Origin: Archangium sp.
GTDB taxonomy: Bacteria > Myxococcota > Myxococcia > Myxococcales > Myxococcaceae
Assembly: GCA_031367385.1 (NCBI GenBank)
Contig: JANLPS010000406.1
Coordinates: 1-10,181, forward strand
Reading direction: 5' to 3'
Length of the DNA stretch: 10,181 nucleotides
Both the position numbers and the translations under genes were made by a program. Of this stretch, positions 2,670 through 10,041 are shown in pieces. The notes beneath the pieces are model-generated. The model was not told the origin of the DNA and ran no database searches. It worked only from the letters and a program-made list of their open reading frames with translations. Numbering within the stretch: the stretch's first letter is position 1; each line of letters begins with the position of its first letter.

Positions 2670-3998
2670 CTACAGCATCGCTGCCAGCGGCGCAGAGGTG
2701 CCGCCGGGCCGCACGACACCGAACGAGTCCATCGGTACGCCGAGCCCGGTCGAGAGCGCGGTCAGAAACGAGTTGACCGTCATGCCGTTGGGCGGCGGCT
2801 CGCCCCAGCCTTCATCGGTCGGCCCCTCGAGGTAGCGCCCTCCCGTTCGCAAGGGGCCCCCCGCGTCGCCGATGACGATGAAGCGCTGGCTCGACCCATT
2901 GTGATGGTCAGGCCCTGAATCGCTGTACAGCACCACGATCGTGTCATCGATCAACCGCCGGCCGTCAGGGCCAGGCGCCTCGAGCTTGCGCAGAAACGCG
3001 GCGACCTGATCGCTGAGCCACTTCCACAGAATGGTTCGCGACGCCATATAGGTCGGGTCGTGGCCTTGATCGGCGATGAAGCCTTGCTCTTCGAAGATGG
3101 TGCCCACGTGGGGGCCGATGAAGCGGGGAAAATGGGAATGGCTGTTGCCGCCGCCGATGCTGCAGCCGACCACGTTGGTCATGCCGCACTGCAAGGCGGT
3201 GACTGCCGCGTCGAGCATCCCAGGCAGCTCCGCCACCACGCCTCGATCGGTGCCGAGCTGGGCCGAGGTCGCGCATGCCCCGGCCGCGCGGCGCTTGTCG
3301 TAGGCGTCGAGCGAGCCCAAATACCCATCGAGCTTGCGGCGCTCTTCACCCGCGAGCTTCGAGCGCAGCGAAGTCACGTCGGTGCGAAGCCGCGTCATCA
3401 CCCGCTTGGTGTCAGCTTCTCCGGCCTGGGCAGCGGCCGACCCGGGAAAGAGGCGCTCGAACAGCACGCTCTCTCTGACCGGGTACGGCACTGGCTGATT
3501 CGGGCCCGAGGCGAAGAGCGATTGGTGCACCAACCGCGTCGGGTCGTTGTCGATGCCGAAGAGCAGGGCAGGCATGGTGCCAGCCGCCGAGAGCTTCGCG
3601 CCGAGCAGTTGATCGATGGTCGCGGCCCTGGGCGCAGCGTCAGCGTCAGCCCCGCCATCACACGGAGTGCACGACAACATGCCGTACCCCGCGCTGTGCT
3701 GCGTGCCCGGCACCGCCAACGAGAGCCCCGAGACGATGAGGGTCTTCGACCTCCACGGGTTGAGCGGCGCGAGCGACGGGTGAAAGCTCCACTCGGTCTC
3801 GCTGGTGCGCGAGGGTCGACCGAGAAAGACATCGGGGAGCCCCGCGCCCAGGCTCAAGAAGACGACCTTCTTGCTGGTCGGCACCGCGCCGTATGCCGTG
3901 CCATGGAGCAGGGCGGCGATGGGCGCCAACACCCGGGCTCCGCTGCCCAAGGCCACCGCGCGCAAAAAGCGCCGTCGCGACTCGTCAATTCGGCTCAC
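2670..3998 (-). CDS. DUF1552-family protein with a twin-arginine-like N-terminus
   Basis: SRRRFLRAVALGSGA leader; LAPLNPW...LIVSGL; TIDQLLG; LFERLF; KLAGEERRKLDGYLGSL; ALQCGMTNV; LIDDTIVVLYSD. GTGA overlap with the upstream gene and GAGGT RBS. This is the usual partner of DUF1592/DUF1588 genes. Confidence 0.88.
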   Translation of the reverse strand: MSRIDESRRRFLRAVALGSGARVLAPIAALLHGTAYGAVPTSKKVVFLSLGAGLPDVFLGRPSRTSETEWSFHPSLAPLNPWRSKTLIVSGLSLAVPGTQHSAGYGMLSCTPCDGGADADAAPRAATIDQLLGAKLSAAGTMPALLFGIDNDPTRLVHQSLFASGPNQPVPYPVRESVLFERLFPGSAAAQAGEADTKRVMTRLRTDVTSLRSKLAGEERRKLDGYLGSLDAYDKRRAAGACATSAQLGTDRGVVAELPGMLDAAVTALQCGMTNVVGCSIGGGNSHSHFPRFIGPHVGTIFEEQGFIADQGHDPTYMASRTILWKWLSDQVAAFLRKLEAPGPDGRRLIDDTIVVLYSDSGPDHHNGSSQRFIVIGDAGGPLRTGGRYLEGPTDEGWGEPPPNGMTVNSFLTALSTGLGVPMDSFGVVRPGGTSAPLAAML

Positions 3999-5644
3999 GG
4001 CGTGACCTCGAGGCGTGGAGTGGTGGCCTGCCAGACAATCAGCTCTTCGATCACCGCGAGGGTGTCTTCATGGCTCGAGCGGTACAAGGCTTTGAGCCGC
4101 GCCAGCTCGCACTGGTCTTCACGCGTCGGTGTTCGGCCGACGTAGAAAGAAAACAGGTTGGTCACGTAGCAGTCGTGCACTGCCGGCGAATCGGCCAGCA
4201 GCTGCATCAGCTCGGTGGGCCCAGTGAAGGGCACCGCCGAGAACCCAGGCCCGTTGAGCACGCCCGCGGTGGTGACCGGAGCGCCGTTGTCGGTGCTCTG
4301 GGGCGCTCCGACGTGGTTGAAGGCTTCGAAGGCCCCGCCGAGGTCGTTCATCAGTACATGGCAGCCGGTGCAGCCGGCGCCGCTCGTCTTCTGCTCGACG
4401 GTCTGGCGGTACGTCAGCCCCGCATGCTCGGGGATCATCGGTATCACCCCGACCGGAATCGATGGCACCGGCATGCACAACAGCCGCTCGCGAATGAACC
4501 GCCCGCGGCGAACCATGTTGTTTCGATCTGGCTCGGAGAATGCTGCCAGCCACGCCGGTTGCGCCAGCACGCCGGGCCGGCCCTTGGCGACGATCACGCC
4601 TGGCATCGGGTTCTCGACCTTCCAGTTGGGCGCAGTCTCTTCAGAGAGTGAAATCTCTTCACTCGTCAACAGCGCCCGCAGCAACCCGGCGCGCGCGTGC
4701 CCGGTGACGTGGCGCTCGACCGCGGCCTCCACGTCGTCGATCATCTTCTGTTGGTTGTACGGGAGCTTGGGGTCCTTCCGAACCTTGAGCACCTTGTCCC
4801 ACTGAAAGTATTCGCGCAGAAAACGCCGCAGCGAGGCCAGGTGCTGTGGCTCTTGCATCAACCGGCGAACCTCGGCCCGCAGCGTGGCCTCGTCGAGCAG
4901 GCCGTCGTGGGTGGCGAGCTCCCACAAGGGGGCATCGGCGGGGGTGCCCCGCAACGTGAACGACAGCAGCCGGCCGCGCTCGATCGAGCTCAGCCCCTTC
5001 GGGCCCCCCAGCTCGGGTCGAAAGATCATCTCAGGCGACATCAACAGCGAGCGGAGCATCAGCTCGATCGCCTTGCCCGGGGTCGCGCCGTCGGCTTGGT
5101 ATGCGTCCATCTCGGCCATTCGCTCGGCCGCTTCGGTGGCAGACGGCGGGCGGCTCCACACGACGGTGCTCACGTTCTGAAATGCCTCAGCCCGGCACGC
5201 CGCAGTCGCCGGGTCGCACGACATTCGGTACCGCGCGGCGCTAGGCCCGGGCGCGATGGCTTCGGCGACGGTGCGAGAGACGGCCAGCAGCTCATCGAGC
5301 TCATACTCATCGACCGAATCGCCGGCGGGGAAGGTCGTGAAGAGGTCTGCCGGGTTGGTGCGCGAGAACGGCGCGACCACCGCGAAGGGCGTGTCTAGAT
5401 ACTGACCGCGCCAGTTGAAGAGTTGGTTGAGGGTGCTCACATAGGCGGGCGAATCGACCCGAAGCACGCGCTGGGGCAGGGCGGGCAGCACGTCGGTGCA
5501 CACCACCGGCACCTCGGGGGCTGGTTCGGCATCTCCCGGGCCGGCTGGCCCTTCACCCACCGCCGAACCCTGCGAAATTGGGGCGAGAATCTGACCCGAG
5601 CAGGCGCACATCGCGGCAAGCAGGGCGAGGTTCAGGGTCCGCAC
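3995..5644 (-). CDS. DUF1592/DUF1588 (DUF1587-1595-1592-1588-1585 architecture) putative lipoprotein with one CxxCH motif
   Basis: Lipobox-like MRTLNLALLAAMCAC; DUF1587-like RVLRVDSPAYVSTLNQLF; LLMSPEMIFRPE; LLSFTLRGTPAD; RPGVLAQPAWL...VRRGRFIRERLLC..P..P; CTGCH..MN.LG.AFEAFN..G; terminal CYVTNLFSFYVGR. Confidence 0.9.
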   Translation of the reverse strand: MRTLNLALLAAMCACSGQILAPISQGSAVGEGPAGPGDAEPAPEVPVVCTDVLPALPQRVLRVDSPAYVSTLNQLFNWRGQYLDTPFAVVAPFSRTNPADLFTTFPAGDSVDEYELDELLAVSRTVAEAIAPGPSAARYRMSCDPATAACRAEAFQNVSTVVWSRPPSATEAAERMAEMDAYQADGATPGKAIELMLRSLLMSPEMIFRPELGGPKGLSSIERGRLLSFTLRGTPADAPLWELATHDGLLDEATLRAEVRRLMQEPQHLASLRRFLREYFQWDKVLKVRKDPKLPYNQQKMIDDVEAAVERHVTGHARAGLLRALLTSEEISLSEETAPNWKVENPMPGVIVAKGRPGVLAQPAWLAAFSEPDRNNMVRRGRFIRERLLCMPVPSIPVGVIPMIPEHAGLTYRQTVEQKTSGAGCTGCHVLMNDLGGAFEAFNHVGAPQSTDNGAPVTTAGVLNGPGFSAVPFTGPTELMQLLADSPAVHDCYVTNLFSFYVGRTPTREDQCELARLKALYRSSHEDTLAVIEELIVWQATTPRLEVTP

Positions 5645-5734: not shown

Positions 5735-6112
5735 ATGAGCAAGGCCATCGAGCAGATAGTCGTGGGGTTTCACACTGCGGTCGACCGAGGCCTGCCGTGT
5801 GAGAGCTTGCCGAAGCCGCTGAAGGCCCAGTTCATCAAGTGGGTTGGCACCAACTACCCCGAGGTGGCTGAAAATGCCGACGTCGACGACCTCGAGGGGT
5901 ACCTCATCGATGAGCACGAGGGCGTTGGCCCGATCGTCGACTTCTTCAAGACGCTGCCTGCGAAGAACCTGCCGGCCATCTTCAAAGATTTTCGAAAGCG
6001 CATCGATGCGTACTATTCGAACTCGACGCTCGACCCTGAAGACGAGCTCGAGAAAGCGGCCATCGACACGCGCAAGCGAATCGACGCGTTCTTGAGGAAG
6101 CAGGCGGGTTGA
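5735..6112 (+). CDS. Hypothetical protein (125 aa, charged, probably helical and cytoplasmic)
   Basis: Strong G/C third-position codon bias and protein-like composition from ATG 5735 (MSKAIEQIVVGFH...). The ORF-track extension to 5423 overlaps the DUF1592 gene antisense. A TG-n-TACGGT extended -10-like motif lies at 5717-5725. Confidence 0.75.
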   Translation: MSKAIEQIVVGFHTAVDRGLPCESLPKPLKAQFIKWVGTNYPEVAENADVDDLEGYLIDEHEGVGPIVDFFKTLPAKNLPAIFKDFRKRIDAYYSNSTLDPEDELEKAAIDTRKRIDAFLRKQAG

Positions 6113-6114
6113 TT

Positions 6115-6585
6115 TCAGTACTCGCAGACGACGTGCGCATCGGCCTGGGCGAGCTCGGCGCGCCGCTTGTACCGCGCGACCCAAATCATGACCGCCGGCC
6201 CGACCAGACACCCGAGCGCGCCGACCTTCGGGAGATGAATCGCCTCGGCCAGCCCGCTCACCAGGCCGCACACCAAAAACCCGGCGAGAAAGCCGAGGGC
6301 CAGCCCCGAAAACGAAACCGGGCCTGCGCGTCGATGACCACACTTGGGGCACTTCGAGAGCCTGATCAGGCGCTCACCCTCGGCTGAGGCATTCGAAAAT
6401 GCGTCGATGCCCGCGCGCTCCTTCGCGGAGTCGCGCCCGACGCCATAGACCGCACTGCCGGTGCCCCGGCCACCGACCTGCACGCGCGCCTTCCACGTGA
6501 AGTTGCACTTGGGGCAGCTGACCTTCTCCGACCAGTCGAGCGCTGACTCTCGCTGGTACACGACATCGACTCTTGGAATGGGCAC
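6115..6585 (-). CDS. Hypothetical membrane protein with a split zinc ribbon (two CPKC motifs) and two C-terminal transmembrane segments
   Basis: SCPKC...KCPKC about 50 aa apart; hydrophobic LALGFLAGFLVCGLVSGLA and VGALGCLVGPAVMIWVA followed by basic RYKRR. Its stop lies 2 bp from the stop of the convergent gene. A TAAGCT -10-like hexamer is 10 nt before the GTG. Confidence 0.75.
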   Translation of the reverse strand: MPIPRVDVVYQRESALDWSEKVSCPKCNFTWKARVQVGGRGTGSAVYGVGRDSAKERAGIDAFSNASAEGERLIRLSKCPKCGHRRAGPVSFSGLALGFLAGFLVCGLVSGLAEAIHLPKVGALGCLVGPAVMIWVARYKRRAELAQADAHVVCEY

Positions 6586-6641
6586 GGGTGCTGTGAGCTT
6601 ACGCTGACCGGGCCCGCCGCCGAAGCGCTCTCAGCAGCTGC

Positions 6642-6749
6642 GCGAAGCGCTTCGGTGCGACGAACGTCGTCATCAATAGAGACGGCGCCGCCTTCGGGGC
6701 CGACAAGAAGGCCTTCGACTTTGCGCTCGACACGATTGTCTCAGGCTGA
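6642..6749 (+). pseudogene. Internal remnant resembling a Zn-dependent NAD(P) alcohol dehydrogenase (cinnamyl-ADH/YahK-like Rossmann segment)
   Basis: My translation is AKRFGATNVVINRDGAAFGADKKAFDFALDTIVSG*, which fits the MDR-family pattern A++LGA..VV.........  ..FDF.LDT(I/V). No start codon and none of the rest of the gene is present. Confidence 0.55.
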
Positions 6750-6792
6750 TCTGACATGCGAGGTCAGGTGCCAGAATTCAAGTGAATGCTCG

Positions 6793-6824
6793 AAGGCCCC
6801 CGAGGTGTGACCCTCGGAGGCCCT
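6793..6824 (-). terminator. Stem-loop terminator of the 6841-7605 gene
   Basis: The minus strand reads AGGGCCTCCGAGG-GTCACA-CCTCGGGGGCCTT, a 13-bp stem whose two non-Watson-Crick pairs are G.U only on the minus strand. It starts 16 nt after the stop; the U-tract is weak. Confidence 0.75.
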
Positions 6825-6840
6825 TTCACACACTGTGTTT

Positions 6841-7605
6841 TCAGCCCGCGACCTTGGTCGGGTCAGCTGGAGGCCCCGACTCGCTGACCGTGCCAGCACT
6901 CGTCGTCGAATTGACGGGCTGCGGAGCAGGGGCGGGGGTCGGCGTTGAAGTCACCACGGGGACCTCGGCGGGGGTGCCCGCCTCGACCGGAGGCGGCTCT
7001 ACCGGTTCGTCGACCTTCAACTTGTTCGGCGCTTTTCGCCGCCTCGGTATGTCGAGGCCATTCGCGGTCTGGAGCGCACGGCCTTCTCGGACACGCTCCG
7101 TCAGAACGAGGTAGACGTCGGACCATTTGGCATTGCTGGCTTCCGCCTTCGCGGTCGCCCTGGCCTCTGCTTTCTCCGTGCTTCGGTACTCTTTGACCAG
7201 CGAGCTGCCGAAGGCCGCCAACGCCTTTGAGGCCGGGTCGTGCATCGCCTCCAACGCCGGTACGACCAGCCGCTCCGCGACGTCGATGCCTTCGCCGTCG
7301 GTATCAACGGAGGTCAACGCGGGGTTGACTCGGATTGAGCCATAGCCAACAGCCATGTCATTGAAGGTGTCGATGTCTTGGGCCGCCTTCTTCGACGCAG
7401 CAATGCAGTCAGTCTCGACTGCTTTATCGGCTGCTGCGACGGCCCCGACCACGATCAGCTGGTCGCGGAGAGAAGTCACATTCGCCGCGGCGACACTGGC
7501 GACCTCATTGCCGTGCATTCGCTGCAGACCGACAATGGTTTCAGCTGCGGTCTCCAGCGCATCGGTGTCTCGCTTCTGGGTATACGTCTGTTGCTCTTCA
7601 TTCAT
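6841..7605 (-). CDS. Hypothetical protein (254 aa): Ala-rich, probably helical core, basic RRRKAPNKLK patch, Pro/Thr-rich disordered tail
   Basis: AGGAG RBS 7 nt before ATG 7605 (MNEEQQTYTQK...), a promoter-like motif upstream and a terminator downstream. The ORF-track extension to 7806 is Arg/Ser-rich and not protein-like. No family recognised. Confidence 0.8.
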   Translation of the reverse strand: MNEEQQTYTQKRDTDALETAAETIVGLQRMHGNEVASVAAANVTSLRDQLIVVGAVAAADKAVETDCIAASKKAAQDIDTFNDMAVGYGSIRVNPALTSVDTDGEGIDVAERLVVPALEAMHDPASKALAAFGSSLVKEYRSTEKAEARATAKAEASNAKWSDVYLVLTERVREGRALQTANGLDIPRRRKAPNKLKVDEPVEPPPVEAGTPAEVPVVTSTPTPAPAPQPVNSTTSAGTVSESGPPADPTKVAG

Positions 7606-7657
7606 TTGCTTGCTCCTGGTAGCGCCAGCACGAGATGTGTTGGCGGACCGGGGCTTG

Positions 7658-7673
7658 TTCAAGAGTGGTGCCA
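7658..7673 (-). promoter_or_regulatory. Putative sigma54 (-24/-12) promoter for the 254-aa gene
   Basis: The minus strand reads TGGCAC-CACTC-TTGAA against the consensus TGGCAC-N5-TTGC(A/T): perfect -24 box, exact spacing, but GA instead of GC at -12. Predicted +1 is near 7647. Confidence 0.5.
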
Positions 7674-7793
7674 GGCTGAATTCGAATTCTTTCAGGCGTT
7701 TCGCGAATGAGCACCGTCCGCGGCGGGAGACTGACCGTCTGTTTTCGAGAGTCGCGCGTGGTGATCGTCTGATTTCGGTGGCTCGAAGCGCGC

Positions 7794-8250
7794 GCGCACG
7801 GTGCAACTCGGGGGTTTCGGGGCCGTTTGGTCTTCGCCGAAGCCGCGCGGAGGCGCGATGTGGCCAGGTGCACGGTGCAGGTCACTATGTCCGGCCCGCT
7901 CATCGCTTGCCGGTAAGCGGGTGAGGGTACGAGGTGCCCAGGTGCACGCTGCGACGGCCGGTTTCGCAGCTGGTTTGCCCTTTCCGGGAAGCGTGCGCGG
8001 GTACGAAACCGTAAGGTGCACGCTGCACTTCAACGTGGCGCGGCGCGACTGCGCTTCGCGGTGAGCCCGTCAGCGGTCGAAGTGCCCAGTTGCATGGTGC
8101 AACTCGTCGCGTCGGGGAGTGGCTTCGCTTCGCGGTTAGCGCGAGAGGGTGTGCCGCGGTGGAGTGCACGCTGCAACGCATCACCTTCGGGCCTGGTTGG
8201 GCTTCGTCGGAAGCCCCAAGCTGGTGCGAGACCCCGACGTGTACGGTGCC
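7794..8250. repeat. Non-coding 74-bp-period array of two alternating palindromic boxes with variable spacers
   Basis: Box A starts at 7794, 7868, 7942, 8016, 8090, 8164 and 8239 (spacings 74,74,74,74,74,75). Box B (GCTT-N6-AAGC-like) starts at 7831, 7905, 7979, 8053, 8127 and 8201, each box A + 37. The period is not a multiple of 3. Confidence 0.9.
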
Positions 8251-8487
8251 GCCCAGGGTTTTGAAGTCGATCGCACCTCGCGCGAATAGGGTTGCTGCTC
8301 ACCCAGAGCCCCGATGTGGCGTTGTCATCTGAAGATGGGCACGTCAGCATCCAATTCGAGAAGCTCCGAATGACCGCCCTGACGCTTCGAGAGGTCAGTC
8401 GCTTTGAACGCGGGTTGCTCCGACCTCGGGGTAAGCGGTGATGCGCGTACCCAAGTCGAAGAGAAAGAAGAGCTGAGCTTCACCGGT

Positions 8488-8521
8488 GCTGGCGGGCTTT
8501 CGACTCATTGCGCCCGCCAGC
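8488..8521. terminator. GC-rich inverted repeat, possible terminator between phoD and the array
   Basis: GCTGGCGGGC (8488-8497) pairs with GCCCGCCAGC (8512-8521): perfect 10-bp stem, 14-nt loop. No U-tract is directly adjacent on either strand. Confidence 0.45.
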
Positions 8522-8571
8522 GGCGAGGAGCATCAGCGCACCAGGCGGCACGACTCTCATCCACCAGCTCC

Positions 8572-10041
8572 TCAGATTGACAATCCGGCGTCGCCTTCGA
8601 GAACCGAGGTCTTGAGCTGTGGTCGCTCGCCGCTCTTCCACAGTGCAGCGGTGTGTAAGACGCGATACCGAATTGGCCCGCCGTCGGGTTTTTCGCTCCG
8701 TGCGATGGGCCGGGGAATGCACACGAACTCCGTTCGCATCTCAGTGCCCGTCAGCCGAACCTTCGAATAGCCATGGCCGCCGAGATCGACGAACTCGAGG
8801 TGCGGGGCAAGGTCGGGGTTCGACAGGGCACGCGCGCGCTTCAGATCGAAGCTCTTCGCGTATTCAAGGCACGAGCGAACGCCGTGTTTCACCAGCATGT
8901 TGTACGTCCAGTCGGGCTTCGCTCCGTCGGGCCGGTCGGCGAGGAAGAGCGGGCGTAGCGGGTCGGTCTTGGAAAAATTGTGCTCGGTGGCTTCCATCGT
9001 CCCCGGGCTCGAGAGCGAGGCGCCGACGAAGCTCAAGCCGACGGGGTCGAACTTGCCTGGCGGCAGCTCGGAGGTCGCGTAGCCCGCCCAGAAGCTGTGG
9101 CGGTCGCCCGAAACGATCGCGAAGCCGGTGATCTTTGCGTCGCGCACGAGGTCGTAGATTTCGGCGCGCTCTTTGTAGGCCGAGCCGTAGTCGCCGGTGC
9201 CGAGCGAGGCAAAGGTGTTCTTCGGCCACGTTTCCTTGGTCAGGCCCGGAGGCAGATTTTGCGGGTCGGCGCGCTGGTCGAGTGCGCCTTGTGAATTGCC
9301 CCAGATTTTCCACGTCGCGGTTGAATGGCGGAGCTGGTCTTTGAACCAAGCTTTCTGCTCGGCTCCGAGGATCGTCTGCGGCGGTGCGCTGCGCTGCGAA
9401 TTGGGGACCTTCGCGCCATTGAAGCTGACTTCCGCCGGTGGTTTCCCTCCGTTGAAGGCACGGCCGCCGTCGAGAACCTTCGCCACGTCCTCCGGAAACA
9501 TGCCCGGGAACTCCGGCCCGAAAGCGCCGGCCGCCGGGTCGCTGAACGGGTCGGCGCTGCGATAGCTGTGTTGATCGGTGATGATGAGGTCGAGGTGTTT
9601 GCCGTAGCGATACGAGCGGTGGCCGATCAGGCTTTTGATCGCGGCCAGGTTGTTGGGCTCGTCGCCAAGGCCGTTCTCGTCCCACTTTTCGATGGCGACA
9701 TTTTTAACCTCGGGCGGCTCGAAGCTCTCGAGTGAGGGGCCGCTGACCTTCTTGCAACGCGACGGCAGGTATTCCCACCAGGCCTGGTTGGCGGCGACCT
9801 TGATGCTCTGGCCGGGCCGCGCCTTGCCGGCCTTCTGAATGCTCTGCCAGCCTTGCCACGAGAACTCGTGGTTGTCCCAGATCATGACGAACGGCCAGCG
9901 CGCGCGAGCGTCTTGGAGGTCAGGATCGGCGAGATACCCTTTGTAGATGGCCCGGTAGCCATCGACGGTCAGCGGTATGTGGAACCCTCCGACCTTGTCG
10001 CCGTCTGCGATGCGCGCGACCTCAAAGATGGTGCGGTCGTA
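8572..10041 (-). pseudogene. phoD: Alkaline phosphatase D family metallophosphatase, 5'-truncated; the C-terminal ~489 codons are in frame
   Basis: PhoD motifs present: YRAIYKGYLADPDLQDARARWP, IWDNHEF, AANQAWWEY.P, DQHSYR, TILGAEQKAWF...S.ATWKIW, VSGDRH. The Tat leader, N-terminal domain, SC and GDxIY motifs are absent. Sequence before YDRTIFEV is unrelated and overlaps another gene's 3' end. Confidence 0.8.

Follow-up and report, generated by a model that had tools for sequence, protein, structure and literature searches.

What does a series of short palindromes, spaced at an almost constant distance outside any gene, do in a myxobacterial genome? The window analysed here is a stretch of 10,181 nt that makes up an entire contig of a 7.97-Mb genome (G000, 98% complete). 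It contains a tandem array of seven 74-bp units, the last interval being 75 bp, at 7792..8253, with no strand assigned. The array is a real, selected, non-coding control region of a sigma-54 cassette of uncultured myxobacteria, in which the array is followed by a predicted sigma-54-type promoter and then by an orphan gene on the minus strand. It very likely serves as a phased, double-stranded-DNA platform for protein binding that is tied to this cassette, and the question then becomes which protein occupies it.

Architecture of the array

The initial annotation placed seven 12-mers in this interval, and their coordinates and spacings (74, 74, 74, 74, 74 and 75 bp) are confirmed, as is a CGA 12 nt ahead of the box at 7856, 7930, 8004, 8078 and 8227, three times in the form CGAnGTG[G/C]CCAG. 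The palindromic core it described is also real, but the 12-mer is only the core of a 17-bp palindrome, here called box A (consensus AGTTGCA-CGC-TGCAACT), centred on 7800, 7874, 7948, 8022, 8096, 8170 and 8245. The annotation had missed that the array goes with the neighbouring orphan gene and its sigma-54-type promoter, and each unit also has a second box. This box B is a weaker palindrome, CTTC-N4-GAAG, read directly and from column conservation once per unit between 7832 and 8213, without strand (copies at 7832-7842, 7906-7917, 7980-7991, 8054-8065, 8128-8139 and 8202-8213). It lies ~37 bp from box A in each unit, and by column conservation its identity is ~0.6 both within and between the window array and a paralogous array of the same type on contig C265 of the same genome.

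The period is equally clear. Across 7741-8300, autocorrelation reaches 0.49 at lag 74 and, at twice that lag (148), 0.48, while 1000 dinucleotide shuffles gave 0.283 +/- 0.020 at lag 74 and a maximum at any lag of 0.389, so the proposed 74-bp peak exceeds even the shuffled maximum. A half-period is absent, with the value at lag 37 (0.25) falling below the shuffled level. The sequence between boxes had been described as variable spacers of held length; the length is held, but the spacers are in fact homologous, at ~50% identity. Because the inter-box stretches of units 2-7 are 34-60% identical, compared with ~28% by chance, the array is an old, decayed 74-bp tandem unit rather than a repeat with unique spacers. 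Tandem Repeats Finder missed it, as the units are too diverged. Contigs assembled from public runs X4 and X5, which come from the same study as two possible source runs of the window, cover 7768-8948 with zero differences; run X3 also matched 6000-8421, but may itself be the window's source.

Which parts of the unit are held can be seen by comparing the window array with the C265 array. Identity between them is 82% in the 11-bp core of box A, 58% in box B and 37-45% in the linkers; the C265 spacings are 74, 74, 73, 74, 74, 74 and 73 bp. These figures bear out the earlier suggestion that spacing is under selection. In the window array, five of the six intervals are exactly 74 bp, or seven DNA helical turns, despite ~0.85 substitutions per site. 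If one indel is assumed for every 20 substitutions, such length retention has a probability of 0.001; with an assumed one for every 50, the probability is 0.07.

The conserved palindromes could act either as DNA or as RNA. When folded and compared with shuffled sequence, the array gives z -0.05 on the gene's strand and a marginal z -1.7 on the plus strand. Rfam, its CRISPR repeats included, has no match in the array. Across 15 units, departures from box A pairing comprise 10 G-T and 11 A-C pairs, with no strand bias and almost no compensatory change, and no Nop domain (PF01798) was matched in G000; control genomes were positive. No RNA data set is among the public runs listed as matching. Taken together, these results favour box A as a double-stranded protein site over a hairpin, and the earlier alternative that each unit is a processed RNA gains no support.

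Two other features of the window were seen. An ArsR-like helix-turn-helix gene at ~465-815 lies between the two copies of a 29-bp direct repeat (428-456 and 829-857), which are 76% identical and show TGCA-N6-TGCA symmetry; the copies are probably the operators of this gene, one before the regulator and one before hydrolase and fatty-acid-hydroxylase genes. The interval 2670-5644 contains a DUF1552 and DUF1588/1592/1585/1595 gene pair, which is ordinary for myxobacteria and planctomycetes.

The predicted sigma-54 cassette and its family

The array begins ~190 bp upstream of the orphan gene, which runs from 7605 to 6841 on the minus strand and encodes 254 aa. Between the two, at 7658..7673 on the minus strand, lies the sigma-54-type -24/-12 site TGGCACCACTCTTGAA, a GG-N10-GA element that agrees with 10 of 12 consensus positions, has A in place of the consensus C at -12 and is 68 nt from the start codon. 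The scoring consensus (GG-N10-GC near TGGCACG-N4-TTGCW) was taken from the available text of PMC7910581. Measured to its centre, the closest box A lies 128 bp upstream of the promoter GG. Direct reading also identified a ribosome-binding site, AGGAG, at 7613..7617 on the minus strand and, just past the stop codon, a GC-rich inverted repeat (6792..6826, no strand assigned) that is a possible terminator, although a terminator scan did not call it. In the sole other genome of the genus (G201, 87% complete), another gene comes after the ortholog of the flanking phoD, and no member of the orphan family was found; synteny is also broken at the three solo-array sites, so that no clean empty insertion site was found. 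The G201 gene after phoD also has an upstream sigma-54-like site (L051:1730-1780).

The orphan protein belongs to no family in Pfam, NCBIfam, PHROGs or PADLOC. It is predicted to have an all-helical core, with helices at residues 10-28, 34-91, 106-120 and 124-181, a basic patch after Gly183 and a disordered, Pro-rich tail. The AlphaFold2 monomer agrees, showing an all-helical core and a disordered tail (mean pLDDT 79, 163 residues at or above 90). Fold searches returned no Foldseek match at E<=0.001, a best Z of 10.7 that is ordinary for helical bundles, and matches to generic coiled coils only, none of them a known DNA-binding fold. When two copies were predicted together, the homodimer score was 0.65, compared with 0.00 for the best control, with pLDDT 89 and runs agreeing in 100% of contacts; 20 of 30 solved homodimers attain the homodimer mark, as does 1 of 23 single chains. 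The predicted interface (residues 77-91 and 124-136) is antiparallel and sits at the far end of the helical hairpin, with residue 77 near residue 91 of the partner copy. The protein is therefore predicted to be an end-to-end, rod-shaped homodimer whose heads, each made up of the N-terminal helix and the basic tail, would point apart, with a tip-to-tip length of roughly 160 Å as estimated from helix rise alone. The basic tail recurs as at least five K/R within 22 residues after a conserved glycine in 27 of 29 family members. No longer or fused forms appeared among 7998 candidates, which is weak evidence, and dN/dS for five pairs (0.27-0.75) is a crude estimate, too rough to use.

A 29-row profile of the family was searched against the 201 genomes of the window's taxonomic family, yielding 36 matches in 17 genomes with a patchy distribution (4 of 23 genomes in one genus, 6 of 13 in another). 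Strong protein matches are confined to this taxonomic family, and no close relatives were found in metagenome contigs, viral contigs or phages. These searches yielded no close ortholog of the window array either, so the comparison of boxes with linkers relies on the paralogous C265 array. The 27 loci analysed have an intact 5′ end and upstream DNA; fragments and weak matches were set aside, as was one locus truncated by its contig end. A sigma-54 score of at least 9 of 12 is found at 21 of these 27 loci, compared with 49 of 1156 control genes of G000 (4.2%), and in 20 of the 21 the motif lies at -64 to -76. An upstream array is significant at p<0.05 at 17 of 26 testable loci, with the caveat that kin are not independent. 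Of lags 15-109, the best are only 31, 32, 63, 64, 73, 74 or 93, all near multiples of 10.5 bp. The remaining 9 of 26 loci, including the intact 32-bp-clade gene L025, have no significant array, and some of the arrays found are young, at 80-90% homogeneity. The helically phased, protein-binding scaffold first proposed for the window gains support from this survey, where arrays of kindred genes, with unrelated sequence, again have near-whole-turn periods.

Both the period and the box follow the protein tree. The 32-bp clade spans two genera and has the boxes GACCAA-N-TTGGTC, GAGGAA-N-TTCCTC and GATGAA-N-TTCATC, whose half-sites change together; the other spacing groups are one 31-bp clade and a 73/74-bp spacing that occurs in two clades. 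Genome G360 has three cassettes with three different boxes. The box pair of the 32-bp clade is found in 8 of 201 genomes, of which six are exactly those with the clade's gene; the other two have single matches spaced 33 bp apart, and the one that was read is apparently inside a coding frame. Among 111 variable protein columns, one tracks the three box types, a number that chance alone could give (estimate ~0.3). The distance from the promoter GG to the nearest box ranges from 21 to 173 bp across the family, and the phase of that box relative to the promoter varies as well. Among the 231 loci listed for a paired box A pattern in genome and metagenome contigs, none fits the unit profile (E<=0.05) or the protein profile (E<=1), which marks these as chance matches or unrelated repeats.

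The source genome alone has six paralogs. Upstream arrays are significant in five of them, with best lags of 74, 73, 73, 73 and 63, and in the sixth a pair of boxes is separated by 74 bp; the unit sequences fall into four unrelated types. The very distant paralogs C62 and C364 have a common box core, ATTTCGAAAT. A genome-wide scan of G000 found lag 73 to be the commonest lag not divisible by three (12 loci, the next having 7). Five of the paralogs (C40, C62, C156, C360 and C364) have GG-N10-GA with TTGAAC at -12, as compared with the GC kept at most other family loci. At G000:C62:3167-3310, two units of the 73-bp array have a perfect -24 element (TGGCACG) apiece, with an imperfect -12 element after it, and at G375:C40:13826-15204 (L333) a tandem pair of family genes stands behind a single 73-bp array and promoter. 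Many family members also have a small, GC-rich hairpin whose loop includes GGA just ahead of the ribosome-binding site (L022, L023, L026, L027, L031, L032, L033, L060, L061 and L075); these leader hairpins resemble CsrA/RsmA sites.

Arrays also occur without a family gene. In G000 these are on C265 (window type) and on C367 and C163 (C364 type), and gene-less arrays of the 32-bp type are found in four of the six genomes that carry the clade's gene. One such array still has the final 48 codons of a family gene joined to it, which shows that gene-less copies arise through gene deletion and cassette decay. One solo array occupies an identical spot in two species (G357 and G402), and in G402 its box differs from that of the gene-linked array. 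Solo and gene-linked arrays have common boundaries, with no terminal inverted repeats or target duplications evident in the alignments, and the solo arrays have no adjoining sigma-54 site. In the gene-less arrays G000:C265, G000:C163, G357:C23 and G402:C321, a convergent gene has its 3′ end directly beside the array end that would face the promoter.

At 20 loci, 170 neighbouring genes were called and 76 of these scanned. No activator was found among the 76, and no ParA, ParB or Rep domain among them or in the window; an activator domain 3.7 kb from the paralog C253 belongs to a gene outside the 76. The neighbours are ordinary chromosomal genes, with restriction-modification or defence-type domains among the nearest genes at 7 of the 20 loci, a figure for which no control was computed. 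The patchy, multi-copy spread of the cassette, together with some defence-gene neighbours, suggests an accessory stress or defence role. Literature searches, which missed most subscription journals and supplements, found no published description of the cassette.

A parallel case, as an analogy only, may be provided by DUF6261-like (PF19775) genes of Myxococcota, which likewise encode small, all-helical proteins with a low-complexity tail and can have upstream arrays. Such arrays, of 42, 43 or 84 bp, are present at 4 of 13 loci, and a sigma-54 motif scoring at least 9 of 12 at 1 of 13. The arrays of L349, L356, L357 and L359 are near-perfect (42/43-bp or 84-bp) and come with no sigma-54 motif. 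None of the 29 family members has a match in Pfam, DUF6261 included, HHalign against 13 DUF6261-like proteins gives a probability of 1.5%, and language-model scores of 0.82 and 0.85 are a weak lead to a shared fold.

Candidate proteins for the boxes

Our preferred candidate, at a little under even chances, is the cassette's own protein, for which the array would be a docking strip and which would thereby control its own transcription. Four observations point this way: box sequence turns over with the cassette and not with the host, gene-less arrays track the presence of the gene, no regulon of these boxes is seen in the host, and the dimer is predicted to be a basic rod with two heads. Outside arrays, box A-like sites near sigma-54 sites number 6 of 97 and 6 of 113, compared with a 12% background, and are thus not enriched. 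In the mechanism we propose, the heads of adjacent dimers would meet on each palindrome, linking the protein into a chain on a single face of the helix, so that unit length would be set by protein geometry and the linker sequence would be free to drift. The resulting filament would control whether a host activator can reach the sigma-54 promoter, and solo arrays would persist as remnants for docking or titration. Several findings weigh against this candidate. The orphan protein has no known DNA-binding fold, and since the array adjoins the gene, a common history is expected whoever binds. The core common to C62 and C364 fits a common outside factor, and the arrayless genes, the mismatched box of the G402 solo array, the activator domain near C253 and the finding that a single protein column tracks the box types also count against it. 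In addition, one rod would have to suit both the 31/32-bp and the 73/74-bp periods.

A stronger form of this idea, which we hold to be doubtful, is that these are self-contained, diversifying sigma-54 cassettes whose coiled-coil dimer acts as a molecular ruler and switches the promoter without a dedicated activator. Here, the dimer would polymerise over its own palindromes placed exactly 3, 6 or 7 helical turns apart, and the co-evolved box would insulate each paralog.

The main competitor to the cassette's own protein is a host sigma-54 activator (bEBP), which we judge the less likely binder of the two. In this case the array would be an amplified enhancer, with each box binding an activator dimer, the phasing allowing activator rings to assemble or DNA to wrap, and different cassettes using different host activators. 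Palindromes of 13-17 bp suit helix-turn-helix dimers, a sigma-54 promoter needs an activator, and G000 encodes RpoN and ~49 strong activator-domain matches. The features of known enhancers that recur here are a -24/-12 motif whose distance from the start codon is fixed, repeated palindromic sites from ~130 bp upstream, and a host with RpoN and many activators; the C62/C364 core also fits. The comparison rests on the available text for NtrC at glnA (PMC7408454), Myxococcus Nla28 (PMC7910581) and the three-site enhancer of NorR (PMC2831303). The box at 128 bp from the -24 GG falls within the 80-150 bp upstream at which activator sites are placed in the accessible part of PMC7910581, and NorR requires all three sites and flanking DNA, as far as the text of PMC2831303 goes. 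In contrast to these enhancers of two or three sites, the arrays here have seven to nine sites over as much as 500 bp with a 73/74-bp period, -12 is GA in five G000 paralogs, and some arrays lack a promoter. The boxes form no regulon in the host and shift with the cassette inside one genus and even one genome. At two loci they come to within 21-29 bp of the GG, compared with a minimum of 70 bp to the start site in the portion of PMC7408454 available.

It is improbable that the cassette's protein uses the array as a scaffold of centromere-like or chromosome-anchoring type, with the adjacency of the array to the promoter being secondary. Iteron and operator arrays are bound by the product of the adjacent gene, and here too the array lies beside the gene of the proposed binder. 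The twelve 43-bp repeats of sopC in plasmid F, as described in the text available (PMC9178275), likewise recur at a long, helically phased period and include a short palindrome. The solo array kept at one spot in G357 and G402 and the defence-type neighbours would also suit a scaffold. Unlike sopC and iterons, however, the arrays here are chromosomal, have tandem long-period repeats with a palindromic core but no adjacent ParA and ParB, no Rep domain and no match in phages or viral contigs, and are paired with a single all-helical protein and a sigma-54 promoter.

Less probable again, and largely refuted, is the view that a minisatellite or MITE-like repeat stands beside the gene by chance and is decaying neutrally. 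Units that are homologous over their whole length, the youth of some arrays and the common boundaries of solo intergenic copies would fit such an origin. The closest likeness is to the BrickBuilt MITE of Porphyromonas gingivalis, which in the accessible text (PMC4596501) also consists of intergenic tandem repeats at several loci. BrickBuilt is given there a leader, a tail, terminal inverted repeats and 0-11% mismatch (PMC4596501), whereas the arrays here are tied to one gene family and their units differ by up to 50%. Moreover, unrelated units converge on near-whole-turn periods, boxes are conserved far more than linkers, net indels are nearly absent and the array fused to the end of a family gene is a case of cassette decay.

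CRISPR arrays have near-identical repeats of roughly 23-47 nt and unique spacers, and TIGR arrays have a ~36-nt unit with box C/D motifs. The initial annotation had already set CRISPR aside, and we concur: the box is 11-17 bp, the spacers are homologous, Rfam finds no CRISPR repeat and no cas gene is present among the nine window proteins scanned. TIGR-Tas, which uses a Nop-domain Tas protein according to the available text (PMC12385481), is made unlikely by the Nop-domain result and the low value at lag 37. That each unit gives rise, through transcription and processing, to a small RNA guide of either kind is very improbable, even though two palindromes per unit could form short hairpins and the plus strand folds slightly better than shuffles, given homologous spacers, pairs that are neither compensatory nor strand-biased, and an array that sits upstream of the predicted promoter.

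Significance for the cassette family

Across the family, arrays reach up to nine sites, and while their sequence turns over fully, the distance between sites keeps to whole helical turns. Bound by a host activator, they would be bacterial enhancers of unusual length, suited to testing the effects of site number and phase. If the binder is the cassette's own protein, it would represent a new DNA-binding fold, for which the family would supply naturally matched proteins and boxes that make specificity directly testable, and should the dimer also act as a ruler, this fold would come with a new kind of sigma-54 control element.
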